A stretch of DNA of 64,000 nt from Giardia intestinalis (Eukaryota): NCBI GenBank assembly GCA_000002435.2, contig CM018792.1. One strand, 5' to 3'. Of this stretch, positions 28,962 to 54,103 are shown one piece after another. The translations under genes were made by a program, and so were the position numbers. The notes beneath the pieces were generated by a model, which saw only the letters and a list, made by a program, of their open reading frames with translations, did no database searches and had not been told where the DNA came from. The first letter of the stretch is position 1. The number at the start of each line of letters is the position of its first letter.

Positions 28962-30374
28962 TTACTTCTCGCATCTGAGACCGTCTGCGGATGGCTTGTA
29001 GTCACCATAGCACTCACAGAAGCCCAGCTCCCCACTAAAGACCTCATGGGAGTGCTCTGGACACGTAGAGATGCAGCAATTTTTACCTGGGCTAATGTAG
29101 TTAAACCTTAAGAGGCAGGTAGTACAGACAGAGACGTCACCATCACAGGTCCGGCACCCTTCACCGCACAAGTTGCACATACCACTTTCCAGTCCATAGC
29201 CAGCCTTGCATATATTGCAAACTGACGAGCTGGAGGTGCATACTTCGCAGTTATCCACGGCACATCTTTCGCAGACGCCCTCTGCCAGGCGATAGCCCGA
29301 CACACACTTAACACATTCATCATTGCGGCCATAGCTGTGGCATCCCTCTAGTTCGGTCACGCAGCGGTTGGAGTAATGTATCTTATTCTTAGGGCAGGAG
29401 ACAACGCAGCTGGTCTGAGTTCTGTCCTCAGAGATCAGCAAGTAAAAACCACCGGCGCACTCAGTACAAAATGCAGCCATATCAGAAGTACCCGGGTGTG
29501 GTGGCAAACATACTTGACAGTTCGGCACACCTGCATATCCATCTCCTCCCTTGTCGCAGGAAACACAGTGACCAGATGCCTTCAAGAATCCGGCAAAGAA
29601 GCCCCTCGCACACGAAGTACACTCTTCATCTGTAAGGCATGTTTCACAGTTCCTGATGGGATTACACGGTACGCATGCGCCTTTGCCGTCGTGCATGTCG
29701 CGATCGAGGTAGTATCCGTCGTGGCAAACCTCACAGTTAGACATGCTGACTCCGCACTTGCGACAATTTATGTCCTCACAGGCCAAACACGTACCTTTAT
29801 ATGTTTCATAACCAGCAAGACAAGCTCCACAGTGTCCAATGTGCTCTACGGCAGAAGAGTCGGCACAGATCTTGTTCCCAGGAAAGCGGTTCTTCCGGTA
29901 GCATCCCCCGTTGTGGTAGAAGTACCCAGTCCCGCAAGTTTCACAGACTCCCTCGTAGCCGGTTGTCCCACAGCGGTTCCCCTGGGCCTTTTTGGTGCAG
30001 GATCCGTCAATCGGGAACTCCCCGTAGACAACGCACTTTCTGCAAAGCGCTGTGCCGTCAACATAAAAAACGTCTTCAGATTTGCAGATAAAATTACCTG
30101 GATCCTCTCCGACCCGGTAGCATCCACCCCGGTAGCTTAAATATGGCCCGGCACAAGAGTCACATGTCCCGTTTCCGAAGGAGTGACGGCATGTATTGTC
30201 TACATTTGTGGATAGGCACTGGCCATCGATTAGAAACTCTGTCATTGCTGTGCAAACAGAACAATAAACTTGGTCCAGGATGACGTCGCAGCTTAGTAGG
30301 AAGCAGTCACCGTCAAGGATTCCCTCTCTGCATGATGCCAGCGCACCGGCGAGGACAATCCAGACGAATATCAT
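28962..30374 (-). CDS. secreted high-cysteine protein (CXXC/GGCY-rich, no C-terminal TM)
   Basis: Signal peptide MIFVWIVLAGALASC, many CXXC motifs, and GGCY motifs (YRGGCYRVGEDPG, YHNGGCYRKNRFPG). Ends ...ADGLRCEK without a TM helix or CRGKA. ATG at 30372-30374 with an AT-rich initiator. Confidence 0.75.
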   Translation of the reverse strand: MIFVWIVLAGALASCREGILDGDCFLLSCDVILDQVYCSVCTAMTEFLIDGQCLSTNVDNTCRHSFGNGTCDSCAGPYLSYRGGCYRVGEDPGNFICKSEDVFYVDGTALCRKCVVYGEFPIDGSCTKKAQGNRCGTTGYEGVCETCGTGYFYHNGGCYRKNRFPGNKICADSSAVEHIGHCGACLAGYETYKGTCLACEDINCRKCGVSMSNCEVCHDGYYLDRDMHDGKGACVPCNPIRNCETCLTDEECTSCARGFFAGFLKASGHCVSCDKGGDGYAGVPNCQVCLPPHPGTSDMAAFCTECAGGFYLLISEDRTQTSCVVSCPKNKIHYSNRCVTELEGCHSYGRNDECVKCVSGYRLAEGVCERCAVDNCEVCTSSSSVCNICKAGYGLESGMCNLCGEGCRTCDGDVSVCTTCLLRFNYISPGKNCCISTCPEHSHEVFSGELGFCECYGDYKPSADGLRCEK

Positions 30375-30448: not shown

Positions 30449-33400
30449 CTACTTTTGGGACGCAGGGGATAAATGGAGATTTCGCTGAGCCAACTCTGCT
30501 CGCGAAAGGGTCGATTTGTTCTCCAGATACAGGTAAGTGTCCGCTGCAAAGTTAGCCCTGATGGCGACGTACTTAGGAGATGCCTGTCGGAAAGGCAAAA
30601 GCTGTGGATCCCACGAATTGATTCGTATCACGGTAGCTGCGTAGACACTCATTTTGTAGACGATTGGCCACGGGTCCATTGAGCAATCCACCACTGATTG
30701 ATTATGTGTGTCATACCCTACATTGTGTAGCTCTATGTTTGTGATATGAACATACCCCAGTCTCGACGCATCAGCCATCGCATCTGTAGCTTCCGATACA
30801 TGCCTAAGTACTCCACCGGTGTAGAGCATCCCTTTATAGACAACGTAGCGTGTGTTGGGCTGCGGAGGCTCTGGAAGTAGAACAGAGCAGAGATTAGCAT
30901 ACGGGACATTACCTCGGGCTAGCTGATGGCGCTTGGCGGTCAATATGAAGTCTAGAAATCTCCAGCATCGATTTGCCTCGCAGATAAGAACTCCGGCATG
31001 ATCCATGACTGCCATGCTCAGGTCTATTATCGGTTTTGCAAGCATGACAGCGTTAGCAAGCAATGAGTTAATAACATAGCCCTCTGCGCTGTGTACGGAA
31101 GTCGTTTGCAGACCTATTGACAGAGGTGTATGCATAGCCTGTACAGAGACTCTGTCAAGGATGTCAGCTGATTCAGTGAATGCCATGCTCCGCAAGCCAG
31201 GAAACGACCTTATCTCCTTGATGGTGATAAGGTTCTGGGGCTTTGATAGAGGAATCACATCACGAGTATCATCCTTCTGAATTAGTGACACAATTTGCGA
31301 AGGGCTTAGCCTTCCTTCGTCAGAGTACAGAGTGAGGGAGTAGAGATACTGTTTGCAAAGCTCCTTAAAGGCAGTGGGGTCAGCTACTCTTTCTTCTGTG
31401 AACACGCATGGTAACTGGACTGCTTGTTGTGATAGCTTTTGCACTTCTTCCAGATAACTGTTAAGCGCAGTTATAGCTTGCTCTCCGCTCTCCTCCCTTT
31501 TTGACTGCTGGGATCTACTTGTTTCTAAAACTAGCGCGTGATGAAGGTTTAACAGTCGAGCTGACGGGCCATACACTCGAAATTCTCGTGGATTGCCTAC
31601 TACTTGTAGGTCATCATCTGATTGTTTGTACCGATTCCTTTCTGTGTCACACAAGTTCTCCTTGCGTATGAACTTCTTTTCTAGAGATATGCTAAGGCCC
31701 AGGCCTGACCCGAGCCTATGTGACCCTAGTAGCACATCCTTTGACATGTCAACTTCAGATTGCTGTGATGTACGCGCCACGTCATCTACGCTATAAATTC
31801 TAGTAAGCTCAGTTGAGTGTTGAGGATCGCTTTTCAAGGTATCTGTATCAGACAATCCTTGGGTCCCCTCTGTGTGCAAGGATGTCAAAGCATTAGCCGT
31901 GCAGTTAGATGAGTCTGATAAGTCTGAGTCACTGCTCACAGCAAGTTCTGAGATGGCCTCATCGCTTACTGTTGCTCCTTGTGGCATTTCAACAATCAGG
32001 TTGTGGGCCAGAGTAACCTTGTCTTGCAGTTCGTGACATAATGAGAAAATACAATGCTTCAGAAAGCGAGAGTGCAGCAGCGAGCCCGGAGATGTGTATA
32101 TTTTCTCATAGACAGACACGTGGTCTAGCTTGTGGAACACACGTGCATATGATACTAGCAACTGGTTGTAGAGCTCTGTCAGACGGCGATTTAGTGGGTG
32201 ATATGATGCCCTCTCGGGGTCGTATCGACGAATCGCGGAGATGGTAGCCCAGATAGCCGCGTATAGATTCTGGATTTTCTCTATAATCGCAGGGTGAACG
32301 CGAAGACGAGTCCGGAGTGTATTTACCAAAGCCTGCATGTGCTCTGACTCTATCACTGCCTGAAACAAGAGGGCTGCTGCTGAGTCTAAAGTTGTATACG
32401 TGTCAGATATGCGAATGTGAGGGCAATCTGGAGGGGGGCTCTGCGTGACAAAGAAGATGAGCAAACCTAGAAGAGTGCGGCTAGAAATTATCGGCAGCTT
32501 GAGCGTACCTGCCTCTAAAGCCAAGGCCTTATCAGTGGAGTGTCTAGTGGCAAAGTGTATCTGCTGTATGCGAAACAGGGTGAAATAATGATGAATCTTT
32601 TCGATTTTACCTATTGGAGCGTTAAAGACAACCAGCTCCGGCGCAAATGCAGCACAAAGATGGCCAATAAGCACTCTGGAAAGCGCTGGAGCAGAATAAG
32701 AAGTTGGAATTAAGATTATCAACCCATGCTTAGGCCTTACCGGCTTGCTAATGAACAATTGGACCAACCATTCTACGCTCTTGTTCCCATCAGATAGAAC
32801 TACAACAAGGTAGGAGAGCAAGTCGGCGTGAGTGGGCTTTGTTTTATAAACGACAGGAGCAGTCAGCAGAAGCTGATCAACTAGATATTCGAACGCAAAA
32901 GAGATGAGTGTAAGAATGTCCAACGTGGAATCGAAGAAGATGGCGACTGTTTTGGATGCACACATAGGACACATCTCTTCTAACAAAGACTGCTTGGATG
33001 CATGAGAAAGTGGTTGCCCATTATCGCTGAAAAACATTCCATAGGATAACTTTTCAGATGGAGGAAAATCCTGTGACCAAAGCTGGCTGCGATAAAAAGC
33101 AGCAATGAATTTGCTGATGGATCCAGTGAGAGACTTTAAAGGACACTGCAAGAACTTAGAGAGGAGCTCGTCATCTCGGTCAGAGCTGAATACGTCAACT
33201 AGACTGAAGCTAGCGGAGTTCGTTAGCTTGCTTACCTTCATAAGAAGGTTGAGGTCCTCCTGCAAATGAGTTGGATTGAGACATATGCTTAAAAGAAAAG
33301 CTATCCACACGCCATTTGCTGAAGGTGACTGAATTGAAATAGGAAAATTACCCAGGGTCATATCATCTTTCAGTTCCATAATCAGCTCATCGGGGATTAA

Positions 33401-36400
33401 TCGCTCATAGACTGAGTCAGTATTGTTATGTAGCTGCATGGAATTTTCAAAATTAGCCGACTTTCCCTTATCTTGGTGCGTGGTTTTTACAGAGAAACCG
33501 GCGGTCTCTGCCCTCTTTAGCATGGCTGTCATAGATCTCCTTGACATGCTTATGTGCTTTCTTGCCTTAGTTGCTGTTTTGGCTTGTAAGCTTGGGTGCA
33601 TATTCTCACTGTCTGCATAATCATAATCAAACATAGCATCATAATCCTCGTCAGTGAGCGAAGCCACCGAACCTTCTGAACTAGTGTCATCATCTGAATT
33701 GATAGTCTTCTTATCCGTGACTTTGTATGAGTTATAGTCCCCTGGGTGCGTGTTGGCGATTGGCTCTTTTACAGGCACTGTTCCAGACCCATATACAGCT
33801 TTGTTAGAAGTACTGCTCCAAGCAGGAACGATCCCTGTCTCTGATGTGAAGCCTCCAAAGAGCTCAACGATGTTGTATTCATGCACGGCTGACTTAAGAA
33901 GTGCATGCGGCGCCAGGAAAGTTTCTGCAGAAAGCCTATTAGAGTGCTTGGAAGATCTCTCTACGTAGGCGTAGTGACCAAGCACCTTCCGGAAGAAACT
34001 CGAGCCCCGAACATATGTCAAATACTGCGTTTTCTGGGTAGAAAAGAAGGCCACCCACTCCTTCGCAAGATCTGGGGCAATGAAGACCAAGCTGCAGAGC
34101 TTGTTCCACCTTTCTATTGCAAGGCTATCTGCGGTGTTTGGCAAGAATGAGTCCATGGCCCGTCCGTTGTCTAGAAAGCCTACTGGCTTAGAAAGTGACT
34201 GATCGGTAACAATAGATGAGAAGAGCAGCATATGCTTCTGTACATTGCACTGTCCTGAAATAGATTCCAAGCATGAGATCATTCCCAGAAGCGACTTCAT
34301 ATATGCCTGCGGAACAATAGCGGATATCTTTGATAAGAGATGATGCACAATCGTGGGGAGCAACTCAGTCATGCGTCGTTCAGAGGTGTGCTTCGGAAGC
34401 AAGCGGCGATGGTGTAAGGCGGAGTGGTCCACTCCTTGTAGGTCTACGATCACGGACGTTACTAAAGAGAAGAAAAATGTATCTGTAAAGGCCACTGAAA
34501 GCGCCTCAAATCTCTCGGACAATTTCCAAAGAAGCTCGTAGACTGAGAGCAGGGTCCTGGCACGTGTTCTTATTCCTTGCTTGATAGATAGCGGTATAAT
34601 AGTAAAGTCAGTAAGCTTCTGAAGTTCTGCGTGTATGTGCTTGATGTATGCTAAGAACAGCTCGACATCAGTTAGTGTTACAGGATTCTGAGGTGCAGAG
34701 AGACCTTCGAGGTACCTATTGAACTCACTTAGGACGCCAACGATTTTATTTTTTCTCAGCAAGAATTGACTTATGCGAATGATTGGAAGATTCAAATGGA
34801 TTGCCTCATACGTAAAAATAATAGTAAGCTCTTCGATAATATAGTCATAAAGGACCGTTTGCCTGTGCCTTTGGAGCTTTTCAATTGCAGATAAGCCTAT
34901 TGCAGGAAAATTGGACTGCGGGGTCCCTTCAGAAGTTGACGTTTCCGATCCAACGTAGTACTGTAAGGTGGCTACGGGACTATGAAGTATATGGAGTCTG
35001 TGATTAAACTCCAAGAGATACAGCGATTCATAAGGATCTGCAAGAGATAGGTACATCCGGCGCATTCTGGGGTGGTATGCAAGGGTCGCCTGCACTGCGT
35101 CGTCGATGCTTAGCGACGCGTGAAATGGCTTGGTATCCCCAAATTCATCCGGCTGTGGCAGCGGAGAATTTACCAACGTAAGTAACGAGCGCAACAATCG
35201 TGCTAGGCTACGGTTATTATCTGTGCACGACGGGGCGAACATGTTATATAAGCATAACGGATGGTCTGCGGCGCCGGAGCAGGAGAGTGCCAGACGCAGT
35301 CGAGAGATAAACTCATCATGTTGCATACTACAATCTATGAACTCAAAGCTATATGCTCTCTTGATCTGGTCAGCAGACGCTGGGTGCTGCAAGTTCTTGG
35401 TCTCTTCAATGTGGCGGAGCGTCTCAGCCATGTACAGAACAGGAAGAAAGAGAGAACACGGGAGAACAGGTATCTTCTCCTGTCCCCTGCTGAAGAGCGT
35501 GTGACATAGAAAGCTGTGCACAGTGCTTTTACGAAACAGAAGGTAACGGGAGTACTCAATGGAAATCCTACCATTTAAAAGGTCTTGCGACATGCCAAAC
35601 CGCATCTCTAGAGCGAGGTCTGCGTACCGGAGAAGGAGTGGAAGGTTTATCTGAAACGTGTCTAAGGCCAACATTAACGAGCGCTCAATGCCAGCGGAGT
35701 CCATCTCAGTAACAAAGTGATTCATGAAGGATCTATTGCTCACTTCAGCAGGCTTTTGGCCCTTGTTTTGGAAGCCTTTATACTCCACAGCTCCTCCTTC
35801 GATATGAGCCAAATAACGATTCGCTTGGGTGCTGTACTCACTGGTAGTGATAGACTTGACAAGGTCTGCGTCTATAGCAGCATTCATAATAAGGACCTCA
35901 AGAGCGTTACTGTGTTGAAGGGTGGGAAGAAGCTGATGCTTAAATACAAGGCTACTGACCGCTATTACCGAATCAACAATAACCCTACGAACAATTGCCG
36001 CAAAGTCATCCATAATTTCGTTGATAATAGTCAAAATATCTTCGCTCTGTGTGGCTAGTACAATGTCGTTGAACTTGGTTGAGCTTCGACTCCTGTGAGA
36101 AATGCTTGTCAATTTAGATGAGAATCTTCCTAGGATACCCCGAGGTGTGATGGAATCATCTGCAGCTTCGGGAGAAATTAATGGTGCCTTGGCGTGCTGT
36201 TTAGACTCAAGCATAAGGGGGAGTAAGGAATTAGTATTACACGTACCTTCTGGTACTGCTGCAAGAATATTAGTCTTGCTTGGTCCTTGCATGCCAGGCC
36301 TGGATTGCATGTGCGCTTCGTCTGTAGCAGTAGCGCCCAGACACACCCTTTGAAATTTGCTCTTGAGTGCCTCTGAGCGAAGATTATTGGCCAGAGTATA

Positions 36401-45400: not shown

Positions 45401-48400
45401 GCGAGGAGGCTCGTCTTCAAAGCCATCTTCCACGCTGGATTCGTCCGTGTCCACAATCAATGGAGAAAAAACAGAGTTGAATAAGGCATCAGTCAGGACG
45501 CCAGTGAGTGGAACTGTAGTTAGTTGAGAATAGAGGACCGCAAACGAAAGCGGAAGACGTGCGTAGGGTGCACAGATTCTGTACTGCTGATTGGCATAAA
45601 TAGTTGTCACCACTGGATGTGAAGAGAGGTTGCGTCTGCAGCGTGAGAGTAGTTCCTCTGCGGCCAGCACATTTGTCATAAATGACTGGACCTTTGCAAG
45701 AATATCGCGAGCAAAAAGATTCATAAATTGGAAACAGTTTGGATTGGGACTCTCATCTGTATAGAATTTCGGAACAGAAAGCCGAGTCCCGCAGCGTCTT
45801 CTGTCCAGAAGATTAAGGTTGTCCAGAAATGAGATGAACGGAAGGGTGTAAACAGATTCGTGTTCATGAACGTTTTGCTGTCCCATACTATTGAGCTTCC
45901 ACACAACTTCATGCTTTGATTTTGCAAAAATACAGATATGCTTCAAACAGCTTAATATCTCAATCGTCACTTTCTTAACATCATTTGGAGAAAGCTTGAG
46001 TAGCGTGAGGTCGGCTATCCCATCATAGATTGCGTTTGTCAGGGCAATAAGCTCTGGGAGAAGCTTTCTAACATTGCCAATAGCTATGACGAAATTTCTG
46101 CAGAAGATCAGTTTGTCCTCTATTATGCGAGCCATCTTTGCAACCTTAGGTATAACTCCTTTGTCAGCCAAAATAGCTGTCACAATGAAGATACCTTCTC
46201 GCAGAGCCTTCAATAGATAGGGGTGTGTGTTAAAGAATGGTAGTGTAATGCGTGCGGGTCCATCATAGCTACGCCTCTTCCTGATAAGGGGTGCCCTGGT
46301 TCGTTGGTTGCCCAGCAAGACCTTGGATTGGACGTGCCTTTGATCCCTGGAGATTAATATTGATTTAGCGCGTGCCTGCTTAGTAGTATCGTTCGTTTCC
46401 TTAATGGGAGTTTGTGAGCTAAGTGTTGAGTTGCCCGGTTGATGCGACAATGAAGCATCATCATCTCTGGATGCAATCGATGGTTGAGGTGCAATAATGG
46501 TGAGAGCCTTGATGCGAGGTTTTAGCAACGGAAGCGTTGTCTTTCTGTTGGTGCACCCAGCTATCCTTCCGAACGGTGTCTCAAACAGATCAAAGGCGTC
46601 CTCATCTGAAGAATCGGTGCAATGCCGGTGCTGGTCTTTGAATGCCTCCGCCAAATCGCTCTTGGTCTCACTTCCTGGTGCAGTGGCGTCTTCAATCACT
46701 TCTGTGACACCAACAGTCCTTCTAGGTAAAAGAATGCCACTTTTCTGAACTACGGGGACAAGAGAATTAGAGTCAGAGATTTCTGTTTTAATAGCCTCTG
46801 CTGCATCGGCATTGTGCTCACCAAAAGTGAAGTCAAGATCTCCAAGCACACGTGCAATCTCGTCATTTAGATGCAGATTGATCGTGTAATATGTTATAAA
46901 AATATCTATATTATGCAGCCAGTAGTATATTTCTAGCAATCTATTTTCTGCAGAATAATTTAGGAGATATTGCTTATTAATCTGGCTTGCCAGCTGATGA
47001 TTAAATGGAGAAATGAGCTCCAGACTATCCCGGATGCTTATGGAGGAGTGATCAGAAAAGCCTTTCCAGTCTTGGCTCAAGGTAGTTGGTTCATCAAATG
47101 TACATGCATGCTCTAAGCATTGATTCAGAAAGTAGGAAGCAAAGTGGTTAGAATTGAAAAGAAGCCGAATGGTGGAGAGAAATGAAAAATGCTGGATACC
47201 GTACAGAAGAAGTGAGACGACTAATAGGCGCAGTGTGGGTATCCATGTCCTATAGTTACATTCTAAGCGACAACACTCAAAGAGTGCGGTATTTTTAAAA
47301 CTATTAATCGTTTCTAATATTTTTGCAGAGATGATATCGGGCGAGTTATCCTTCAGTTTGATCACTGTTCGCACGTCCTTTTGCTTAACATATAGCGTTT
47401 GGAAGTACTTTATTTTGACGGGAAGCTTGATTACGTTCATGTGCATAGCAACATCCCGCAGTGACTGTAGGCCAGTGTTGGAAAGCAAGGTAAGCACTGG
47501 CGCATCGCGGATAGAGTTATCTAGAATAAACTGGCTGGCACGACTGGCGTTGGATATAGCCAATCTCGAGCCAGCTGCTATTGCAGAGACAACGCTAGTG
47601 ATCACAGTCTTCGCTGGAGCTCCATGAATGCTTGAAACGTTCGGTGGCGTATCTCCAACTGAGACGTGTTGATTGAATTGGCATTTAGCGGAGCGTACAG
47701 AGCGTGCAGTATCAATTGAAAAGCTATTTGCTGAAACTTCTCCAGCGGGCAACGGCAGTCCAAGTTGTGCGGTAGATATCTCAGAGGTGGTGTCACAGGC
47801 TGCTTGATCGTGGTCTTCGTGCAAGTTTTGGGCATGCTTAAGCAGTCTATCATCAAACGTGATAATCTGAGACGACTGGGACGGAGACGGTGGTGAAGTA
47901 GATTCTTTGTAAATAGAATCCCTAACCTTAGCAGCTGTTGGAGCAACTGATGAATCGATCATGGAGCCCGCTCCTTCAAGGTTTTCTTCCTGTACAACGG
48001 AAAGCTCCTGTTTGGCAGCTCGTGCTGTAAGTATAGATGGAAGCGATGAGGTTTTCGGTTTCTCCTTAGAACGCTGCGAGATTTGGAGCGTGCTCTGCTG
48101 CTTCAGTGTATATCCTGCCGAAATTTTTTCCCCATCAAGCAAGCTAAGAATAAACTTCATCCCTCTTGTTACGAAGGTATTGCTCTGTGTGTTCTTCTCA
48201 GAAATTAATACGGTGAGGTCATCCATACCTTTGGAAAGTAACTCTTCGTGACGGGGTGTATCAATGTTGGTCGTCAAGCCCTTAGGGGCATCGGCATCGA
48301 TACCATCAGTGGTAAAAATGGATGTTTCAAGGATTACTTGGTGTCTAGGATCATAGTCTTCATTGATTAAAAACTCTGCGGTGCTAGGTTCTATGAGTCT

Positions 48401-51400
48401 GTGGGCTGTGCTCTGATGATACGAATATTCCGAGTTGTATTGATCATGTCTGTCATTAAGGCTAGGTGCTGCATGGGCCAACATTGAAATGTTGCTACGC
48501 TCGGCCACATGCATCTTTCGGCTGCACAAAAAGATTGTGTCTATATATGTTAGGAAAAGTGACGGATTAAAAGCCGTCACTGGCTGATGCATTATTCGTG
48601 TGTAGGAGGCAAACATATCCACAATTGAAACGAGAAGTTGACAAGGGCTTTCAACCACTGAAAGAATGTCTCGAAAGCTTGGCTCCTCGATAGCCAAGGT
48701 GATCCCGAGAATCTCGCTCCATTGGGTTATTGCACCAAATATCTTAACAGTCTCCTTAACGAGAACATGTACCTCCGTGAAGATCGCATAGAGGTCATAG
48801 TACGGCGACGTATTACCTGTCTGCTTTTGGTCTGCAGACTGCTTCATTATAAGTGTGTTACCCGAGGCATGACTCATCTTTATCGTTCCCGATCTCGAGT
48901 CCTCGTCTAATTCATATATGCACTTTACCAGGAATCGAAAGAGCGACTCCAAATCGGTAATTAGTGGGTTGCTGCATAGATAGTCGTCTGTCGGCCGAGT
49001 ATAAAGAGTGATCATATGCCTCTGAAATGAACTGTGTCGCGTTATCGCCAAATTGGTGTGGCTTTGTACAAACTTTATGAATGCATAGGCGTCCTCCCCG
49101 TTTTGAGATTTAAAGTACTGTTCGAGTCTATTCAACACAATATTGCTCGTCAGGCGTGGATATTTTTCCTTGAACTCATGCGGTCGAGCCACAGAAGATA
49201 TCAGATCAGACGTTGTGAGCCGTGTTACTTCGTTCGCAAGGCCTATGCACAGTTGGCGCAAGTAGAGAAGATATTCTACACTGAGATAAATGAAATTAGA
49301 AAACGACTGGAGTCTCCGATCGATGTTTCTTTTGCAGGTGTTAATAAGTCGCCTGAAGTTGAGGATTTTTTCTATGAACGAAAGAATAAGATAATTATGC
49401 GCATATCCCCGAAGTTGCAGTTGAGAAAGCCTCATTGAAACAAGAATGGAGACCTTGGGCAGAGTTGCTTGACACTTAACTGCCTTTTCGAAGGGGAGCT
49501 TGGCAGGATCAATCTTGTTGCTTGCAACACGCTTCAGGTAGCGTGTCTTCCTTCGCTCATACTTACTACGATCCTTAGAGATCCTAGTCCAGAGCTGGAT
49601 GTCGAAGGCATGATCAAGCATCTGCTCAAACGTAATACGGTCCTCTGGAATAAATAGTAGATCTTTCTGGAGAAGATACCGGTGCACACTTAGGTCATGA
49701 AGCGAGTCCATGTCAGCAGCAGCGTGCTGATTGGTACGCTCGACTTCCGCTGGACTATCTTCTCTAGCTCCGTCTGTATGTACGGTGATGTCTTCCTTTT
49801 TATCAGCGGACCCTTCAGAATCTGAGTCGTCGCTTTGATGAATCGTCCCCTGTGATTCAGTCTGGACACCTGCCTTTAATTTGGCACTAACACCCAGATA
49901 CTCAAAGAGGCTTTGGACGTCTGTAATAGACGCAGTACTCTCAATGTAGGACAAGAGAGGTAGAAGATCTATGAGCATCTTGATCGCCGGGATCCAGCCA
50001 CATATGAACTTCTGGGCATCATCTAGGCCAGTGATGACCATATCCAAGTTATCCGGAGTGTCCATGTCGAGGCAGATCCTGTTCTCAAAGAAGGAAATGG
50101 TAGCAAAGGGTGTCTGTAAAACCTCACTGATTGTCTGGCGAACATGTTCACGAACGTGCTCGATTACAGCGATGAGCTTATTTATCAGTTGCTTCTTCAT
50201 TAGGGTGGTGTCATACATAATAAAATTGATATAGAATCGCGGATTGATTGGCAAGATTTCTTTTCTAATGTAATTTAGTATTCTATTAATTACTATAGTA
50301 GCGTTATCAACAATCACGTAAAGAAGGGAAGCCTCACGGTGCCGCTTTCTTATAGAATTCTTCTCTGATGAAGGCTTCCCCAGCCGTGGGAAAGGACAGT
50401 CAGATATGTGCGGCTCTTTGCTGGAACTCTGTTGTTGGGTGGTGGTAGCTAAGGACGCCGTCTCTGACCTGTCTGAGTGCTGTTCCTGTTCGCTATCCTG
50501 TTCTTCAACAGTACCAGGAATTGGAGTGGCAGCACTTGAGGAAGACTCCTTAGTAGGGTCACAAAGACCATATGAATTTAGATACTCGCCTGTAGTGAGT
50601 TGTACACTGAAGAGGGGGTTATTAAAGGTAAGTATTTCATCATGTAATATGTTAGTCATATCTGCCTGCTCTTCAACGACTAACTTGGCAGGACTCTGAT
50701 AAAGGAAGAGGGGTGGAGTAAATATAGACTCCGGTAACGAGTTATCTGTCTCCTGGGTGCTTGCATCATCCAGTAACCTCTTGAGCTGTTCGGCATCTTC
50801 GCTTGCAGTTAGATATCGATGTCGCAGGACATTATGCAATGCAATAGTGTGCAGTTTGTTCCGTTCTAGCTCTCTTGTGATGTTCTCTGAACATAGAAAG
50901 GCAGCTGAATAAATATTAGAAAGCAACTGGTCAAACTGCCGAAAAAACTGGCGATTGTAAGATATTATTAACAAATTTGACTTAGATCCCATTGAACTGG
51001 GCGGGCATCGGTATAGTATTTCCTTCAATGACGTGATATTGTTGAAGTTTTCTTCGAGGAGCTGCGCATAGCTGAGTCGAAGCCTCTTCCGTTCCTCAAA
51101 ATAGGCTAGCTCAAAGTCCGAATAACGTGATGCTATGATATCTTCCAGGTACACCTCTCGCTGAAGACGATCCTGAAATGTCTTGGGCTTAATAATATTG
51201 AAGGAGGTTAGATCTTGTTGTATGAGCTCAAGCTCCTTATGAACCAGTTGTTTGCAGTATCGCTTAAGTGGCGGTAGCTCAGAGTAGCCTTTCACGATGC
51301 TTTTAGATAAGAAAATCAAATTGGTAGTGAGGTGGTACTCGAGATCAGTATTAAGTCGATGTAAGGAGTGCACTAAATTGGTGACGACAGTCCGGATCAT

Positions 51401-53965
51401 AGTAACTTGGGCAACGCAATCCACTGTGAATCCAACTACCAGATTAGCCAGCCCATTAAGATCTTCTCTGCGCTGGTAGGGCTTGAACACATCTGGCTTT
51501 CGAAAACATACGAAGTCCAGCTTAACAAGTGGCTTATGAGGCAGTTTAATAGTAGAAACATTCTGAGTCGTTATTGCTGCTTCTATGGAGCTGGTGGATC
51601 GCAATTGATTCATAGATTCTTCGGTTGCATAGGCATACTCTGCACGGCACAACTCCAAGAGGTTCTCCTGAATCATATCTAGGTCTTCAGAGAATGTACG
51701 CTGTAGAAAGAGAACGACCTGATAGTTAAATATCTCGTAGGCAAGAACTGGGTTTTCTTCCAAGCGTCTATTACTCTCTTGTATCTTGTTTAAGTTGAAG
51801 TCCCTAAAGAATAGCGCAGAAATAAGCGGGACAACATCGGTGATGAAGAGTGCAAAGAGCTTGCTGTACAAAAATGCGTACCTTAATGTGTCAGAGTACT
51901 GATCACTATCGAGAGGAAGATCATAGTAGAAATCAGCGTGCGCCGAACCAGTAGACTGCTCAAGAATGCTCTTCACAATACTCTTTTGGGCCTCCTTAAC
52001 AATAGCCACATTGGCATGCTCATCTTTCAATTGTAGGGCAGGCTTACTCTCGTCGTCGTCATCATCAGATATCACATCCAGATTGTGATAAACATGAGGT
52101 GGCTCAAGATGTATTCGCTGAGAAATGTACTTTTCGACATATATATGGGGAGATTTTAGCGTACGGCGTCTCAACATGGGAAGAATTAAGGGATCTAACA
52201 AGAAGTCAACTGTGCGAGGAAAAGCGGAGAACTCCTTTAGCAAGGATTGGGTCTCCGATGATTCACGCTTGATCACCTCATAGATCTGTCGCTTTACAGA
52301 GACGAAGTTATACCCAAGCTCTCTATACCTTAGCTCCAGTTCTGCGAACAACTCATTGTATTGTCGTAAAAGAATCCGTGACGAGGAAAACGCATCTAAT
52401 AGCCCTGCAATAGAGAGATTGATTGGTGCACAAAACCTTGATAGAAGTTGAAGAAACGTGTTTGACAGCTTTATAAACTTTGACGAATACCTGGGAAGAT
52501 CCAATAGAACAGTGTGCTGAGCTATGAATGGCCTTTTGCTGAGAGAAATTGCTGATTTGGAATAGAACGAAAAGGTGGTAGATCCACGTGCCCGTCGACT
52601 AACCATCGAGTGGAAGATCCGCCTGGTCTCACGAGAGTACAGAATAATACCATACCGTAAACAATCATTGTAGAGCGCATGCAACTCTACACTAATAGAA
52701 GTTGAGTCTGCACATGGGAGGTTTGGTGGTGTGCTATTTGCAAAATAAGAGCTGGTAGTATTGGTACCATTGTTCTGGTCTTCACCGTCTGGTAACAAAT
52801 CGCTTAATCCCTTCAAAATCAACGCAATCTTTTGAAGATCACAGGATTTGCGAGGTGCAAGCACACGCGTTTCTTCATTGACATCGTCAATTGTGCAGAG
52901 ACGCATCAGCGTATAGCTCACTGCTTGAGAATAGAAAACAGAGTAGTCAGAGATAATGCCCTCTAGCGCAGCTGGTAACACAGGACACAATAAAAGAAGT
53001 AGGCCATGTGCCTCTGTGCTATAAAGATCACCAGTAAGAAGAAGGGACTTCTGCTCAGTAGTGAGTTGGGACGATAGAGGGGTAGAGAGAAGTGAACGAA
53101 GGACTGCCCTATTGTCTCTAAGAAAGAGCCAAATTGTTTTTGGGTTAATCAGTAGGGAGGTCGATCGTTCAACATCTTTTTTAGCTCGTTCGAAGTCAGC
53201 TAATGATGGCGAAAGATCCAAGCTAAAGTGCTGACTCTGCACCTGAAGTTGCGATTTGACGTAGTCATTAGAAAATAAGTGAAGGTTGAAGAGGAGGCAT
53301 ACCGAATTAATAACCAAGCGCCGTATGTGTGTATGTAACGTATGCTCCAGATATGTGACCCGCTTGTCCTCGTTGACAAAGCGATCAGAGGAGGAACGGT
53401 TTCTAAGAGTTAGTAAGGTATCTGCAGTGGTAATAACAAGAAAGTTATCAATCAGGTAGCGAGCAGATTGTTCGTATGAGGAGTATATCCCATTATTATA
53501 GAGATTGTAAGAGAAGCGTGCGTCCTTATCATCCTGGAGGCTACCGTAGCAGTCTAAATGTATAAGTTGCAGATTAACCTCATGGAATGACCTGGTGCAC
53601 GCATCCCAATCTGTAGAATCTCTGCCAGTGGACAAGGCTACCAAAGCATAGTTCCTTGCAACATCTATTGCTAGGAGGCGGATGGGAACAAGGGTGAATT
53701 GATTATATTCATAAAATGCAGGATGGCCACGAAGAGCTGGATTGTCAATTGAAGATTGAACAACACGAATTGTAATAGTAGTAAGACTGAGGGTAGGTGC
53801 GCTCTCCTGGAGCTCTGCATAAGACCGAGTAATATTCTTTAATGAAAGAGATGGAGATGCAGGGGAGGTTTGTGTTGGAGACGCGCGATGAAGGGTCGAA
53901 GGCTCCCGCTGGCCTATATGCAATAACTTGCAAAAGACTATGGGAATTCGAAAGCTGACACTCAT
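30449..53965 (-). CDS. giant hypothetical protein (~7838 aa from first ATG), predominantly helical/Leu-rich, with a single Walker A P-loop
   Basis: Uninterrupted 23.5-kb ORF; the track start was TTG at 54007 and the first ATG is at 53963-53965. The P-loop VILGDSFSGKTTILQIAASLIG lies at about residue 4590 (nt ~40190), with a candidate Walker B VIYVD shortly after. Ser-rich and acidic low-complexity islands. No dynein-, midasin- or VPS13-type signature recognised. Confidence 0.75.
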   Translation of the reverse strand: MSVSFRIPIVFCKLLHIGQREPSTLHRASPTQTSPASPSLSLKNITRSYAELQESAPTLSLTTITIRVVQSSIDNPALRGHPAFYEYNQFTLVPIRLLAIDVARNYALVALSTGRDSTDWDACTRSFHEVNLQLIHLDCYGSLQDDKDARFSYNLYNNGIYSSYEQSARYLIDNFLVITTADTLLTLRNRSSSDRFVNEDKRVTYLEHTLHTHIRRLVINSVCLLFNLHLFSNDYVKSQLQVQSQHFSLDLSPSLADFERAKKDVERSTSLLINPKTIWLFLRDNRAVLRSLLSTPLSSQLTTEQKSLLLTGDLYSTEAHGLLLLLCPVLPAALEGIISDYSVFYSQAVSYTLMRLCTIDDVNEETRVLAPRKSCDLQKIALILKGLSDLLPDGEDQNNGTNTTSSYFANSTPPNLPCADSTSISVELHALYNDCLRYGIILYSRETRRIFHSMVSRRARGSTTFSFYSKSAISLSKRPFIAQHTVLLDLPRYSSKFIKLSNTFLQLLSRFCAPINLSIAGLLDAFSSSRILLRQYNELFAELELRYRELGYNFVSVKRQIYEVIKRESSETQSLLKEFSAFPRTVDFLLDPLILPMLRRRTLKSPHIYVEKYISQRIHLEPPHVYHNLDVISDDDDDESKPALQLKDEHANVAIVKEAQKSIVKSILEQSTGSAHADFYYDLPLDSDQYSDTLRYAFLYSKLFALFITDVVPLISALFFRDFNLNKIQESNRRLEENPVLAYEIFNYQVVLFLQRTFSEDLDMIQENLLELCRAEYAYATEESMNQLRSTSSIEAAITTQNVSTIKLPHKPLVKLDFVCFRKPDVFKPYQRREDLNGLANLVVGFTVDCVAQVTMIRTVVTNLVHSLHRLNTDLEYHLTTNLIFLSKSIVKGYSELPPLKRYCKQLVHKELELIQQDLTSFNIIKPKTFQDRLQREVYLEDIIASRYSDFELAYFEERKRLRLSYAQLLEENFNNITSLKEILYRCPPSSMGSKSNLLIISYNRQFFRQFDQLLSNIYSAAFLCSENITRELERNKLHTIALHNVLRHRYLTASEDAEQLKRLLDDASTQETDNSLPESIFTPPLFLYQSPAKLVVEEQADMTNILHDEILTFNNPLFSVQLTTGEYLNSYGLCDPTKESSSSAATPIPGTVEEQDSEQEQHSDRSETASLATTTQQQSSSKEPHISDCPFPRLGKPSSEKNSIRKRHREASLLYVIVDNATIVINRILNYIRKEILPINPRFYINFIMYDTTLMKKQLINKLIAVIEHVREHVRQTISEVLQTPFATISFFENRICLDMDTPDNLDMVITGLDDAQKFICGWIPAIKMLIDLLPLLSYIESTASITDVQSLFEYLGVSAKLKAGVQTESQGTIHQSDDSDSEGSADKKEDITVHTDGAREDSPAEVERTNQHAAADMDSLHDLSVHRYLLQKDLLFIPEDRITFEQMLDHAFDIQLWTRISKDRSKYERRKTRYLKRVASNKIDPAKLPFEKAVKCQATLPKVSILVSMRLSQLQLRGYAHNYLILSFIEKILNFRRLINTCKRNIDRRLQSFSNFIYLSVEYLLYLRQLCIGLANEVTRLTTSDLISSVARPHEFKEKYPRLTSNIVLNRLEQYFKSQNGEDAYAFIKFVQSHTNLAITRHSSFQRHMITLYTRPTDDYLCSNPLITDLESLFRFLVKCIYELDEDSRSGTIKMSHASGNTLIMKQSADQKQTGNTSPYYDLYAIFTEVHVLVKETVKIFGAITQWSEILGITLAIEEPSFRDILSVVESPCQLLVSIVDMFASYTRIMHQPVTAFNPSLFLTYIDTIFLCSRKMHVAERSNISMLAHAAPSLNDRHDQYNSEYSYHQSTAHRLIEPSTAEFLINEDYDPRHQVILETSIFTTDGIDADAPKGLTTNIDTPRHEELLSKGMDDLTVLISEKNTQSNTFVTRGMKFILSLLDGEKISAGYTLKQQSTLQISQRSKEKPKTSSLPSILTARAAKQELSVVQEENLEGAGSMIDSSVAPTAAKVRDSIYKESTSPPSPSQSSQIITFDDRLLKHAQNLHEDHDQAACDTTSEISTAQLGLPLPAGEVSANSFSIDTARSVRSAKCQFNQHVSVGDTPPNVSSIHGAPAKTVITSVVSAIAAGSRLAISNASRASQFILDNSIRDAPVLTLLSNTGLQSLRDVAMHMNVIKLPVKIKYFQTLYVKQKDVRTVIKLKDNSPDIISAKILETINSFKNTALFECCRLECNYRTWIPTLRLLVVSLLLYGIQHFSFLSTIRLLFNSNHFASYFLNQCLEHACTFDEPTTLSQDWKGFSDHSSISIRDSLELISPFNHQLASQINKQYLLNYSAENRLLEIYYWLHNIDIFITYYTINLHLNDEIARVLGDLDFTFGEHNADAAEAIKTEISDSNSLVPVVQKSGILLPRRTVGVTEVIEDATAPGSETKSDLAEAFKDQHRHCTDSSDEDAFDLFETPFGRIAGCTNRKTTLPLLKPRIKALTIIAPQPSIASRDDDASLSHQPGNSTLSSQTPIKETNDTTKQARAKSILISRDQRHVQSKVLLGNQRTRAPLIRKRRSYDGPARITLPFFNTHPYLLKALREGIFIVTAILADKGVIPKVAKMARIIEDKLIFCRNFVIAIGNVRKLLPELIALTNAIYDGIADLTLLKLSPNDVKKVTIEILSCLKHICIFAKSKHEVVWKLNSMGQQNVHEHESVYTLPFISFLDNLNLLDRRRCGTRLSVPKFYTDESPNPNCFQFMNLFARDILAKVQSFMTNVLAAEELLSRCRRNLSSHPVVTTIYANQQYRICAPYARLPLSFAVLYSQLTTVPLTGVLTDALFNSVFSPLIVDTDESSVEDGFEDEPPRDMTDVKHGPQLSYSLLSNLIDSTGNFFGIFKGHENIFYQTIIKANARVKDCYLFTEGSLHSQHIVHNYRKAALLFLNERYREALLFCTYQAIVYALSCIVYLYCDGRSESFIYCYENVICSMIRILEEETYDLIRGTGKLRAQGSFQVGSTFSATSSRILMLKALYARLLEHKETLDIMALTVVQHVIARNILPPERIPSLTDQFDARLCWDILLLYGRNRGLVLSGLEHGVSLSIATNRQTSALVYSLASDTLLGNGANRRVDLPMLDLTYTAEEKTLIKNAKARLQARTESVSLLTSNSDAPEGTEPRDTKGNDNVAFDDFAALTMELFRTPESLSKLNQATVSTANLDDKMAYATPVSSIALNCDTNITDFRMPTAPLSETLVNIVLSGQLISISSSYFNPANEYDSMYISHTMRLKAARLISALRSKSVALLLTDWARGYFALEVYYLAHLVARYLSSHVLFIPITDASFLPQYNRLRELLISRYLVILYGVDTLTKEHLEMLSTTFATTTLSYGFEDFSSYSISSETRLEFNPYSRSSRSYSSQGWIPIDSDIDHSFCRLIIWLAGAMPQECSVTTTMTSSPSSHSQRSSSGPHIVDEHYIYQVHPHAERVTQKFRKAYMMYLPFIPYISTLQSTHEFRTTQLVCASASLVDQTTFTKNFSAYKSIVLEVYMEHVESLKHQIVVRADKNLGDSCCTISPFQRLFRSLPGLYQDSFYHLHVFLSNLSNDFPKLLGLDFMLIQHRLAPDANRTAACTQTFVYLVSCMYLATEESFCLVDDINSDLLQSDGATHEEVKSEAPHAAINLQHKLSILISCLISVFGLSPANATTFEHSGSRVTSDSMAYMIRRSSSPKYLESLHGLQRSAGILSEFGAYMATVMMDLLAAKEPFAILTTSMAQQFFEYVHAILSRASALTFLLAYSSADIHFYADLLSAFPNRYALAIVLDQHSDLLLYQNILGMLAARQTIYSENNKTYTFKAPVHVIIVARARDARILQLSIRKFSLSRNLHLSDIGFYFMSFGNLSQLNISHLISIQAPTLASISSYDKLMQYIYANFDADYHIYTSSFLTRTKLGLYISYFNFLVFNFVMFISTEIGAHLTLTLRHWRIIKALIHLFFRYYGILDVQTGNDSHRPTLSTEEELSTDTMNLYHELSIRSYTDAKNPISFKQQKDLREASTKPLEFNINDALGSHFSYFSEPISLAHSFADLRGESLQSNPGAHNLNHRSVSFETAYSTMLNQTSAQFTQSFISRLLLTSNSRHIADILHYSVISTVFSAFMLLYRMEYINGGLLFNSLSYYRLYASLLSYIPTFSLTLESEFFEQHVFYRKDGFRLSKWMHLFCDNAIMSLQDLYVSQTYFFTNAETYPTFSALFAKRHAESLNPKVAHSTGSSTGSSTLSRGPNYCETYANVSDMGAAARGEASVEAFSVPDDQFAAKPEKTVSDSNFKSMWGGSTYSFIAITSYLSDRLLLTIAKKLGLTAEIIYELEQVSLPQYRKKCMESLSKRADQLRISRLKETQSTIPTGMSASSVNKIKNNSQAQRLDISRPVNNTSLLPEKAELNADCTDFSAVLRKVASSTSTGQSLQRVSTRVLTSLECQSLPTKGSRISSAPHQLEGDNLASAGTPKTTSRARLGRLKHLQLDSVPEKTGSQDDKYVVSFIRRYMPILEVPYRVGEEIFVSTSLLTMQNSYADTSNSLQLVITNDMSAYAVYYAGCMLSGESFVILGDSFSGKTTILQIAASLIGSDRVSLQTFYVGNSTIKTIADLQVQILRKSYLLRPEISRAGNLYTAQSVNGKFNILHISGLTHANLLEFLSLPLLEHVIYVDISQRDVSKAIGGFCGRIFLRDSVVIYEVSSSCTERTARRLMDMSVYVSTFSATSKPTFFHSLVYRNFVYDHLIQDAYCSMEKSVANYHAIHYDVDDPLTALLPVSPRFHYPKVFQPITARVFAARGIKRFPKLSAESIAGNIDALQSDHRPQLTKYAPMSIVIRTLVKSFAEGLLLIRPLLPISLLELLCSMKQNVYFDDTDVRNVFGYPPSSFLENLHMLVPSANSLFSALLRHGSVPISVSTRVYSELVSAFSVGTLSSTSVFSVLTPEYAEAFKRMYPFLIPFSYSDNGRADTISIMLHFSWETCLKTVIDPDGPSHSALSMPVSSRDSKVSTPNSRHAPVLIFNGDYFTRHRFELQRRIPVSARKDFRYNKILNIDKAYSVDVLKFTGDLIDELSVDDGPKHEPLLPTAVSAAEKPRERAESKKNAALTMLSKMSKFQDIHLTSMLTRAGLDFFDSDSSSDDSSSMTLESTDRSEHRPDLLERRGELTSAANTAIRATYSDYAQGFLRNDNVSTARDRSEQEQEQSHDLDLTQHQLVQDFEDKRPSTTIVRLLVKYRDIREVTHLSSHVAIILIRAYLITEIMWHRNCIKIYEYLSTLRFGPANGMTQFNQFSRVYNPPKILISYLQLSNLHNYVEDTHHMLQFIALLGNFKLVNSLDFMGFITGLYYSPHDGTVRIPKDGQRGSMAPTSTKSKPKQPKDCSVSLLNIHQGMYTNFAIHLLFTRYHRYLINSYQLITLVGILAIEAEIGDVELSIRKSLKPIKSSYYSDSSDEDDFIAQTNPRILRTLKKKSVFTPDSRPFLRAEKPVMTYSGKLSKSDPYYYIFREVNKYCVEREPVNGFSLPLTGLRLDFLVDLVGVYKTSKDVSVLTYYIVRAYLLMALGFSPSLGLKDLSLLRINEFYNTETSSGMGVWNSIDSSLVKKHLGRASIRDFFLPEPVDILLVLHSNLLVGKLDILSSIASLPHTLTAVFLEEELRFISLLVSCYYELDFLLCDQELMWLLSRNFSILVLNDTVSISLDILKCLTILPSIGDQAIQKYVVNGTCLSGTDSFTSVSFTTNYFHNLEKSLNIMFSSVAEPLLRCFSVTSKKTLYLPESNSVLPPDIFGEFRGTLILACTIGYAICLQYLQTSTLNYTLTFSAYTEHVWRFCYLRMGMYSGFAITLYTLANNLRSEALKSKFQRVCLGATATDEAHMQSRPGMQGPSKTNILAAVPEGTCNTNSLLPLMLESKQHAKAPLISPEAADDSITPRGILGRFSSKLTSISHRSRSSTKFNDIVLATQSEDILTIINEIMDDFAAIVRRVIVDSVIAVSSLVFKHQLLPTLQHSNALEVLIMNAAIDADLVKSITTSEYSTQANRYLAHIEGGAVEYKGFQNKGQKPAEVSNRSFMNHFVTEMDSAGIERSLMLALDTFQINLPLLLRYADLALEMRFGMSQDLLNGRISIEYSRYLLFRKSTVHSFLCHTLFSRGQEKIPVLPCSLFLPVLYMAETLRHIEETKNLQHPASADQIKRAYSFEFIDCSMQHDEFISRLRLALSCSGAADHPLCLYNMFAPSCTDNNRSLARLLRSLLTLVNSPLPQPDEFGDTKPFHASLSIDDAVQATLAYHPRMRRMYLSLADPYESLYLLEFNHRLHILHSPVATLQYYVGSETSTSEGTPQSNFPAIGLSAIEKLQRHRQTVLYDYIIEELTIIFTYEAIHLNLPIIRISQFLLRKNKIVGVLSEFNRYLEGLSAPQNPVTLTDVELFLAYIKHIHAELQKLTDFTIIPLSIKQGIRTRARTLLSVYELLWKLSERFEALSVAFTDTFFFSLVTSVIVDLQGVDHSALHHRRLLPKHTSERRMTELLPTIVHHLLSKISAIVPQAYMKSLLGMISCLESISGQCNVQKHMLLFSSIVTDQSLSKPVGFLDNGRAMDSFLPNTADSLAIERWNKLCSLVFIAPDLAKEWVAFFSTQKTQYLTYVRGSSFFRKVLGHYAYVERSSKHSNRLSAETFLAPHALLKSAVHEYNIVELFGGFTSETGIVPAWSSTSNKAVYGSGTVPVKEPIANTHPGDYNSYKVTDKKTINSDDDTSSEGSVASLTDEDYDAMFDYDYADSENMHPSLQAKTATKARKHISMSRRSMTAMLKRAETAGFSVKTTHQDKGKSANFENSMQLHNNTDSVYERLIPDELIMELKDDMTLGNFPISIQSPSANGVWIAFLLSICLNPTHLQEDLNLLMKVSKLTNSASFSLVDVFSSDRDDELLSKFLQCPLKSLTGSISKFIAAFYRSQLWSQDFPPSEKLSYGMFFSDNGQPLSHASKQSLLEEMCPMCASKTVAIFFDSTLDILTLISFAFEYLVDQLLLTAPVVYKTKPTHADLLSYLVVVLSDGNKSVEWLVQLFISKPVRPKHGLIILIPTSYSAPALSRVLIGHLCAAFAPELVVFNAPIGKIEKIHHYFTLFRIQQIHFATRHSTDKALALEAGTLKLPIISSRTLLGLLIFFVTQSPPPDCPHIRISDTYTTLDSAAALLFQAVIESEHMQALVNTLRTRLRVHPAIIEKIQNLYAAIWATISAIRRYDPERASYHPLNRRLTELYNQLLVSYARVFHKLDHVSVYEKIYTSPGSLLHSRFLKHCIFSLCHELQDKVTLAHNLIVEMPQGATVSDEAISELAVSSDSDLSDSSNCTANALTSLHTEGTQGLSDTDTLKSDPQHSTELTRIYSVDDVARTSQQSEVDMSKDVLLGSHRLGSGLGLSISLEKKFIRKENLCDTERNRYKQSDDDLQVVGNPREFRVYGPSARLLNLHHALVLETSRSQQSKREESGEQAITALNSYLEEVQKLSQQAVQLPCVFTEERVADPTAFKELCKQYLYSLTLYSDEGRLSPSQIVSLIQKDDTRDVIPLSKPQNLITIKEIRSFPGLRSMAFTESADILDRVSVQAMHTPLSIGLQTTSVHSAEGYVINSLLANAVMLAKPIIDLSMAVMDHAGVLICEANRCWRFLDFILTAKRHQLARGNVPYANLCSVLLPEPPQPNTRYVVYKGMLYTGGVLRHVSEATDAMADASRLGYVHITNIELHNVGYDTHNQSVVDCSMDPWPIVYKMSVYAATVIRINSWDPQLLPFRQASPKYVAIRANFAADTYLYLENKSTLSRAELAQRNLHLSPASQK

Positions 53966-54103
53966 TAGGAAAACTTTACGCCCTGAGTGACTGAAATATA
54001 TGCTCAAACAGGATAGGGACAGGACACGAGCTGACTAGTCCAGGACGCGATGCAAAGGTCTTAAAAAAATCTCCGCTTCAGGTAGCTCGACTTGTGTACG
54101 TCC

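Follow-up and report, generated by a model that had tools for sequence, protein, structure and literature searches.

The giant gene and its reading frame

The 64,000-nucleotide (nt) stretch of Giardia intestinalis DNA analysed here (contig CM018792.1 of assembly GCA_000002435.2; hereafter the window) carries GL50803_35487, a complete single-exon coding sequence (CDS) on the minus strand which starts at an ATG at 53965, ends with the stop codon at 30449-30451 and encodes a protein of 7,838 amino acids (aa), 884 kDa and isoelectric point 6.6 (Table 1). An earlier reading made from the letters alone, here called the sequence-only reading, had described a real, uninterrupted single-exon open reading frame (ORF) of 23.5 kb for a protein of about 7800 aa with a single P-loop, and its frame, length and exact coordinates are all borne out. 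As far as sequence comparison reaches, the product is a true orphan with a lone P-loop, for which no relative outside Giardia was found with the exhaustively searched aa 4505-5704 or in metagenome scans.

The maximal ORF spans 30449..54007 of the minus strand and comprises 7,852 codons counted from an upstream TTG. The ATG is the start used in the WB, Logan and ENA models, and the upstream extension is probably 5' untranslated region. None of the remaining five frames of the giant-gene region contains an ORF of more than 150 aa. Given the base composition of the coding strand (probability of a stop 0.051 per codon), a stop-free run of 7,852 codons would arise with a probability of about 1e-177. 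The argument that no such frame arises by chance thus stands, whereas the GC content of about 49% attached to it does not: the giant gene has 45.3%, against 47-54% in six neighbouring genes, and its coding strand is C-rich, both because Leu, Ser and Thr are frequent in the product and Gly is scarce (3.3%).

The exact protein is already carried by GenBank and UniProt (XP_001708404.1, KAE8303497.1, A8BAI0) as 'hypothetical protein GL50803_0035487' of G. intestinalis WB, and the gene is therefore no new discovery. The 90% cluster of A8BAI0 has 29 members, which include seven more full-length copies (7,838-7,852 aa) from Logan, ENA and NCBI assemblies. Since the identical 7,838-aa product recurs in many independent Logan and ENA assemblies, an assembly chimera, one of the outcomes which the sequence-only reading had named as fatal to it, is excluded. 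In two isolates, DH (ESU35709.1) and the assemblage B isolate GS-B (ESU44786.1), the copy bears the name 'ABC transporter ATP-binding protein'; the WB and GS entries read 'hypothetical protein'.

Table 1. Features of the giant gene, with positions in the window and residue numbers of the 7,838-aa product.
Feature	Position	Strand	Basis or remark
Complete single-exon CDS GL50803_35487	30449..53965	minus	ORF listing; exact database match
In-frame upstream extension to TTG	53966..54007	minus	Start of the DH-isolate model (7,852 aa)
Ordered block aa 4534-4975, holding the P-loop	39041..40366	minus	Best conserved of 11 blocks
P-loop NTPase-like segment, aa 4563-4649	40019..40279	minus	phmmer against PDB, NCBIfam, hhalign, shuffles
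Walker A GDSFSGKTT, aa 4587-4595 (GNSFSGKTT in assemblage B)	40181..40207	minus	Sequence scan
VIYVD as candidate Walker B, aa 4683-4687 (assemblage B has IIYLD)	39905..39919	minus	Read by eye
Fast-evolving polar acidic/Ser-rich linker (example), aa 5001-5250, includes DSDSSSDDSSS	38216..38965	minus	Composition and alignment of assemblages A and B
Region 3' of the P-loop, aa 5251-6450, includes conserved blocks 5522-5862 and 5988-6700	34616..38215	minus	AlphaFold DSSP, conservation
Codon-level comparison with the third lineage, C-terminal 2,383 aa (aa 5456-7838)	30452..37600	minus	Nei-Gojobori

Composition and architecture

Leu (12.4%) and Ser (10.8%) are abundant in the product and Cys makes up 1.4%; acidic and Ser-rich islands also occur, one of them DSDSSSDDSSS at aa 5146. 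The sequence-only reading had called the protein helical, Leu-rich and interspersed with such islands; its compositional part is confirmed, and its helical part stands as far as a periodicity measure and a low-confidence model carry it. Polar, acidic/Ser-rich linkers account for about 36% of the residues and leave 11 ordered-looking blocks of 170-713 aa each. Between assemblages A and B the linkers are 61% identical, against 76% for the ordered blocks, and have twice the indel density. The block that holds the P-loop reaches 83% identity, compared with 71% overall. In assemblage A, isolates whose protein has 7,840 aa carry two additional residues within a stretch of EQEQEQ at aa 5205-5215 (window about 38320-38350, minus strand), so that length variation between isolates sits in the low-complexity acidic linkers.

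Amphipathic periodicity, a crude measure, resembles that of an alpha-rich control (the dynein motor) and differs from that of a WD40 control. AlphaFold2 was run on alignments of assemblages A and B, and hence on Giardia sequences only, for aa 4505-5004 and aa 5251-6450; by DSSP the latter region is modelled as almost all-helical, which at a pLDDT of 29.2 is indicative only. BLAST revealed no internal repeats. There is no convincing transmembrane span, the best Kyte-Doolittle windows of 19 residues scoring at most 2.0 and containing charged residues. Pfam searches with the whole protein, as two halves and as 26 pieces of 302 aa (E<=1), identified no family, and phmmer searches of PDB with the two halves returned nothing; six shorter queries from conserved blocks, including the C-terminus, gave nothing relevant beyond the P-loop. 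The picture is of a giant, predicted soluble protein built of at least 11 conserved ordered blocks with faster-evolving Ser/Asp/Glu-rich linkers between them, in which the P-loop lies in the best-conserved block.

The composition of the product also leaves a footprint along the window. Plus-strand GC skew is uniformly positive (0.06-0.14) over the giant gene from about 32 to 54 kb, near zero at 30.4-32 kb, and flips outside, while GC is 43-47% within the gene against 50-55% in the flanks; both the skew and the drop are the compositional trace of a protein rich in Ser, Leu and Thr and poor in Gly and Glu.

The P-loop segment

The motif [AG]x4GK[ST] occurs exactly once in the 7,838 residues, as the GDSFSGKTT that had been placed near aa 4590. 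The nearest conserved hhhhD, also noted earlier, is VIYVD, 94 residues past the Walker A lysine; its Asp is followed by Ile or Val and not by a catalytic Glu. Chance alone would be expected to produce 0.20 Walker A motifs in a protein of this length (P ~0.18). A lone motif is therefore insignificant, and it is the flanking sequence that makes this one credible. In the P-loop NTPase-like segment the order is a preceding helix or strand, the GE-strand, Walker A, a helix, a strand or hairpin, and 'SYLLRPE'. Scored with small, home-made hidden Markov models (HMMs) of the ABC family and the AAA_5 clade, the real segment outscored all 3,000 full shuffles; when the Walker A was held in place the advantage became marginal (P 0.01-0.04 with the ABC HMM and 0.07-0.23 with the AAA HMM).

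Database searches lead to two classes. With aa 4505-4822 as the phmmer query against PDB, the top five matches are midasin (E 8.5e-4) and ABC ATPases come next, among them BceA with 14.6 bits in a single stretch; the midasin E-value is summed over three weak stretches of the protomer core, the best of 12 bits. NCBIfam returned about 20 weak matches, 16 or more of them ABC ATPases, covering the Walker A and some 50 further residues at 11-23 bits against cut-offs of 130-970, the best (23 bits, E 4e-5) being obtained with the assemblage B sequence. PADLOC gave a weak match to LmuB, an SMC-like protein. Pfam, searched with the P-loop region, gave only DUF927 (E 0.002, over 29 residues), with no match to ABC_tran or AAA_5. 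A genuine dynein P-loop also yields a 21-bit ABC_tran match, together with weak STAND and T2SSE matches, and short ABC matches are therefore not class-specific.

An alignment of the P-loop region from assemblages A and B was then compared by hhalign with a panel of P-loop classes (Table 2). The midasin fragment came from the PDB match; of the other comparators, those validated by Pfam are the human DYNC1H1 motor, eight ABC nucleotide-binding domains (NBDs), RavA and BchI, while Rad50, RecA, p97, adenylate kinase, Ras and APAF-1 were not so validated. Flanks of the ABC type are present around the Walker A, the alignments to ABC NBDs spanning 44-69 columns. Judged by these comparisons, aa 4563-4649 look like the N-terminal half of a genuine P-loop NTPase whose likeness to ABC ATPases (94%) is as strong as that to midasin AAA protomers (95%), and whose class may be either ABC-like or midasin-type AAA+. 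Of the ABC, AAA and STAND families against which the sequence-only reading had proposed to map the P-loop, STAND is not supported: there is no Pfam match to NB-ARC or NACHT, and APAF-1, a comparator without Pfam validation, is at 0.5%.

Table 2. The P-loop region compared by hhalign with known P-loop classes.
Comparator	hhalign	Remark
Midasin 68-aa fragment	95%	E 4e-8; from the PDB match; raw score equal to that of ABC
8-NBD alignment	94%	E 1.2e-7
MalK	89-92%	69 columns, aa 4578-4649; 'SYLLRPE' opposite 'QSYALYPH'
HisP, FtsE, MsbA	80-85%	
Dynein AAA4	44%	
Rad50	33%	
RavA	12-25%	11-25% together with BchI
BchI	11%	
RecA	10%	
p97	6%	
Adenylate kinase	4%	
Ras	2%	
Dynein AAA1	1.5%	
APAF-1 (NB-ARC)	0.5%	

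Beyond this half the resemblance ends. The part of an NBD that bears the signature, Walker B and H-loop is undetected in aa 4645-4769 (hhalign 0.15%), and in the parts of the protein that hhalign searched, those outside aa 4201-5400 (the flanks of the query), no second NTPase module was found, all values being below 0.5%. 'ISGLT-x15-VIYVD' was considered as a counterpart of LSGGQ...hhhhDE, which has the same spacing, and was rejected because both the hhalign comparison and a PDB profile search were negative. The name 'ABC transporter' was set aside: the similarity is confined to the P-loop, there is no convincing transmembrane span and, outside aa 4201-5400, no second NBD was found, and the features that define the family fail.

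Conservation within Giardia

An exhaustive phmmer search with aa 4505-5704 against 1.84 billion representative proteins (cluster representatives) gave three matches, all from Giardia: one protein of 7,808 aa and two fragments. The 7,808-aa protein is 77% identical to the query over this range and clusters with GL50581_234 of the GS isolate, hence belonging to assemblage B. Over the full length, assemblages A and B are 70.6% identical, ranging from 40% to 89% across windows of 100 aa. In a third and more distant Giardia lineage, whose locus (L005) was found through the neighbouring Mpp10 gene (itself 71% identical), the giant gene is intact at 7,866 aa and its neighbourhood is fully syntenic. 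Orthologues and synteny, which the sequence-only reading had suggested looking for, are both found within Giardia. Two metagenome scans, one with the P-loop alignment and one with a C-terminal alignment, recovered no further relatives.

Over 2,368 comparable C-terminal codons the Nei-Gojobori comparison with the third lineage gives a saturated proportion of synonymous differences (pS 0.74) against a proportion of non-synonymous differences (pN) of 0.19, with dN/dS about 0.05-0.18 wherever it was computable, and therefore points to purifying selection. GL50803_35487 is a genuine Giardia gene under such selection. To judge from these alignments the frame has stayed open and the protein is constrained along its length, and by detectable sequence it appears restricted to the Giardia lineage.

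Expression and genomic neighbourhood

In RNA-seq data the giant gene is steadily expressed, with a normalized log value of about 7.1-8.4 in all samples (Krakovka et al. 2022, supplementary tables, PMC8866875). The gene ID was found neither in the 2026 localisation atlas nor in two other proteome supplements, and it occurs in no main text of the literature. The gene is transcribed, and full-length translation is putative; of the RNA-seq and proteomic checks proposed by the sequence-only reading, the first shows expression and the second gave no record of the protein in the tables consulted.

The neighbouring genes, a setting characteristic of Giardia, encode a VSP-family Cys-rich protein, ankyrin-repeat proteins of the '21.1' type, Mpp10, a tubulin-tyrosine ligase, a CDC14-like phosphatase and a RecQ helicase. 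Downstream of the giant gene, at a distance of 74 nt, comes the VSP-family gene (470 aa, window 28962-30374, minus strand), which is syntenic in the most divergent lineage sampled (467 aa, L005 10379-11782); such stability is unusual in the VSP family and the product is therefore probably a non-variant protein of the HCMP type. On the other side, the 3.4-kb gap at 53966-57465 contains a 186-aa ORF (56258-56815, minus strand) with a weak RVT_1 match (E 1.5e-5, 25 bits against a cut-off of 29.6), which, given this similarity, probably represents what is left of a dead retrotransposon just upstream of the giant gene. In either assemblage, all Logan contigs with the giant gene are about 36.9-37.4 kb long, as though assembly stopped at repeats on each flank. 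The tubulin-tyrosine-ligase model varies, with 511 aa in some Logan calls and 757-774 aa in others (L001, L005 and L006); the window ORF (23327-25705, plus strand), counted from a GTG, is 792 aa long and has its TTL domain at residues 461-748. Close to its right-hand end the window also holds an ORF with the C-terminal domain of a YchF GTPase (61209-61883, minus strand, E 1e-35) and, at 63147-63893 (minus strand, E 4e-63), the C-terminal portion of a VSP.

Interpretation and alternatives

We tentatively propose that the product is a mainly alpha-helical megadalton scaffold or tether with disordered acidic/Ser linkers, in which nucleotide at the single site would switch conformation, self-association or the binding of partners. 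The site may bind nucleotide and hydrolyse it slowly or with the help of a partner, because the Walker A is intact and the Asp of VIYVD is present while a Glu, a second NTPase module and a membrane segment are lacking. A scaffold or tether with a switch at a single site, probably slow or non-hydrolysing, is a plausible proposal that falls short of being probable; a ring motor of the dynein or midasin type, or a transporter, is unlikely.

Several observations weigh against this proposal. A 'helical scaffold' would be drawn from crude indicators, and the AlphaFold2 models are unusable (pLDDT 29.8 for aa 4505-5004 and 29.2 for aa 5251-6450). When folds become available, sequence orphans of Giardia are often recognized as hyper-divergent representatives of known families. 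Past the Walker A, a profile search with aa 4636-4821 gave no PDB match, and VIYVD as a putative Walker B was assigned by eye. The Walker A is conserved between assemblages A and B within a block that is more than 80% identical, which is no proof of function. Finally, every protein-level column for the giant gene is NA in the compiled table of PMC8866875.

If the Walker A were a chance motif or an evolutionary relic without nucleotide function, the protein would be purely structural, a reading we find fairly unlikely yet worth keeping in mind: the 0.2 motifs that 7,838 aa would hold by chance (P ~0.18), the marginal margin over shuffles with the Walker A fixed (P 0.01-0.07), conservation between the assemblages that is uninformative at 83% local identity, and the lack of both a catalytic Glu and a recognizable second half of any NTPase domain all agree with it. 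Against this, the alignments to ABC NBDs and midasin extend 20-55 residues past the motif on both sides at 89-95%, where unrelated classes reach 0.5-10%, and the motif, which lies within the best-conserved block, has a canonical strand-loop-helix context (hydrophobic strand, GxxxxGKTT, amphipathic helix). Were the site functional, it might instead belong to a degenerate head of the ABC/SMC type through which two giants, or a giant and a partner, clamp head to head on ATP in the manner of Rad50, SMC and non-transporter ABC proteins. To this idea, which we regard as unlikely, the preponderance of ABC among the NCBIfam matches (at least 16 of about 20), the BceA and LmuB matches, the high values for MalK, the 8-NBD alignment, HisP, FtsE and MsbA, and the GenBank names of two isolates' copies lend weight; it is countered by the undetected second half (0.15%, with a negative PDB profile search), the replacement of the Q-loop Gln by Arg or Lys, the missing LSGGQ and the missing Glu after the Walker B Asp, as well as by the lack of an ABC_tran match in Pfam, NCBIfam scores reported as more than 10-fold below the cut-offs, the ABC_tran match of a true dynein P-loop, and the absence of membrane domains and of a second NBD.

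A hyper-divergent AAA+ giant of the dynein, midasin or RNF213 class seems to us distinctly improbable. Here a six-module ring, with a huge tail and a C-terminal region on its flanks, would have degenerated until the P-loop was its only surviving nucleotide site, and the protein might substitute for the cytoplasmic dynein-1 reported absent in Giardia. Midasin protomers are the top PDB matches to aa 4505-4822, three of them reaching the helix before the P-loop, and the 68-aa midasin fragment gives the highest hhalign value of the panel; the P-loop lies about 60% along the protein with some 3,250 aa following, and Giardia is reported to lack DHC1, with unclassifiable orphan dyneins mentioned for diplomonads (PMC5100056). 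The midasin score nevertheless sums weak P-loop matches, and the fragment, chosen as the best match, carries a selection bias. No dynein, AAA_5, midasin or VWA family is matched by the 302-aa pieces, whereas the control dynein matches all 11 motor domains; BLASTP against the dynein motor and hhalign against dynein AAA1-2, the dynein C-terminus, RavA and BchI stay low; no second AAA-like module appears outside the skipped aa 4201-5400; aa 5251-6450 are modelled, at low confidence, as all-helical; and the position of Walker B in AAA clade 7 reads ILHIS, with no acidic residue. That the locus is an artefact, be it a chimeric assembly, a pseudogene or non-coding DNA, is a negligible prospect: only the absence of the protein from one compiled proteomics table speaks for it, against the stop-free run, the identical product across assemblies, the intact gene in three lineages in spite of saturated synonymous sites, and its transcription. 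The boldest reading would make the protein the founder of a new Giardia-restricted class of megadalton NTPases, or a dynein- or midasin-type mechanoenzyme diverged beyond recognition, whose single site would drive large-scale remodelling of a parasite-specific structure such as the ventral disc, the median body or the cytoplasmic axonemes, and which would partly replace cytoplasmic dynein-1. We consider this a long shot, which would be highly interesting if a new NTPase class or a cryptic dynein substitute were to emerge from structure or experiment.

Giardia has kept this frame, 23.5 kb of a genome of about 12 Mb, intact under purifying selection across lineages with saturated synonymous sites, and it is therefore almost certain that the protein matters to the parasite. 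A lone P-loop that proved functional would provide a nucleotide pocket specific to the parasite and an example of a single NTPase switch in a megadalton scaffold. The analysis also puts right the misleading label 'ABC transporter ATP-binding protein' in the databases, and it exhausts sequence methods for the giant protein.

Comparison with known giant proteins and ATPases

The sequence-only reading had recognized no pattern of dynein, midasin, VPS13/BLTP or RNF213 in the protein. By Pfam, PDB, BLASTP and hhalign this is upheld, except for about 90 residues at the P-loop which do resemble midasin and ABC proteins. For VPS13/BLTP there is no match to Chorein-N or any other Pfam family, and both periodicity and the low-confidence DSSP assignment look helical, not beta. 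For RNF213, structures of which are in PDB, there is neither a PDB match nor a RING or AAA match in Pfam, and the protein has 1.4% Cys and one P-loop.

Dynein heavy chains, including the aberrant DNHD1, share with the giant a very large size and a central P-loop followed by about 3,000 residues, and Giardia is ciliated and is described as lacking cytoplasmic DHC1 and possessing orphan diplomonad dyneins that are bona fide dynein homologues (Kollmar 2016, PMC5100056). To judge by its sequence the giant is not one of these. Dyneins have six concatenated AAA+ modules with Walker A motifs in AAA1-AAA4, and so four P-loops in place of one, and no similarity beyond the bare P-loop emerged in any test: none of the motor domains DHC_N2, AAA_6, AAA_7, AAA_8, MT, AAA_9, AAA_lid_11 and Dynein_C is matched at E<=1, no MT match thus pointing to an antiparallel coiled-coil stalk with a microtubule-binding domain, while the control human DYNC1H1 motor matches all 11 motor domains at 84-414 bits; BLASTP against the dynein motor gives 28.1 bits, the same as a reversed-sequence control, without collinearity; and by hhalign the P-loop region reaches 8% against dynein AAA1-2, covering the P-loop only, and the C-terminus 0.6% against the dynein C-terminal domain. 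Two resemblances picked out by eye, 'LVIT-x23-GxxxxGKT' to dynein AAA1 and five collinear motifs to the dynein C-terminal domain, were dismissed as pareidolia, BLASTP and hhalign being at noise.

A separate canonical midasin is reportedly present in Giardia (Garbarino & Gibbons 2002). Midasin (Rea1/Mdn1) differs from the giant in having six tandem AAA modules near its N-terminus, where the giant has a single P-loop module without an acidic Walker B at the AAA_5 position; six tandem protomers were not found, nor was a MIDAS/VWA domain, for which Pfam searches with the C-terminal pieces and a PDB profile search with aa 7520-7838 gave nothing relevant. Its clade relatives RavA and BchI reach only 11-25%, and the 95% of hhalign applies to one fragment and is equalled by ABC. 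Giant size, long helical regions and acidic stretches are common to both proteins, and in weak matches three midasin protomers align with the helix before the P-loop, with the Walker A and with the strand after it. The NBDs of ABC ATPases (MalK/CysA/PotA-like, ABC_tran) have a Q-loop Gln where the giant has Arg or Lys, and LSGGQ, which the giant lacks; neither a signature, Walker B Glu, D-loop nor H-loop is detectable in the giant, whose domain is embedded at residue 4587 of 7,838. What the giant does share with these NBDs is the 'GE' with its hydrophobic strand, a Walker A of the form GxSxSGK[ST]T, the helix and hairpin that follow, and the residues 'SYxLxP', which fall at the Q-loop position and are spaced alike in both.

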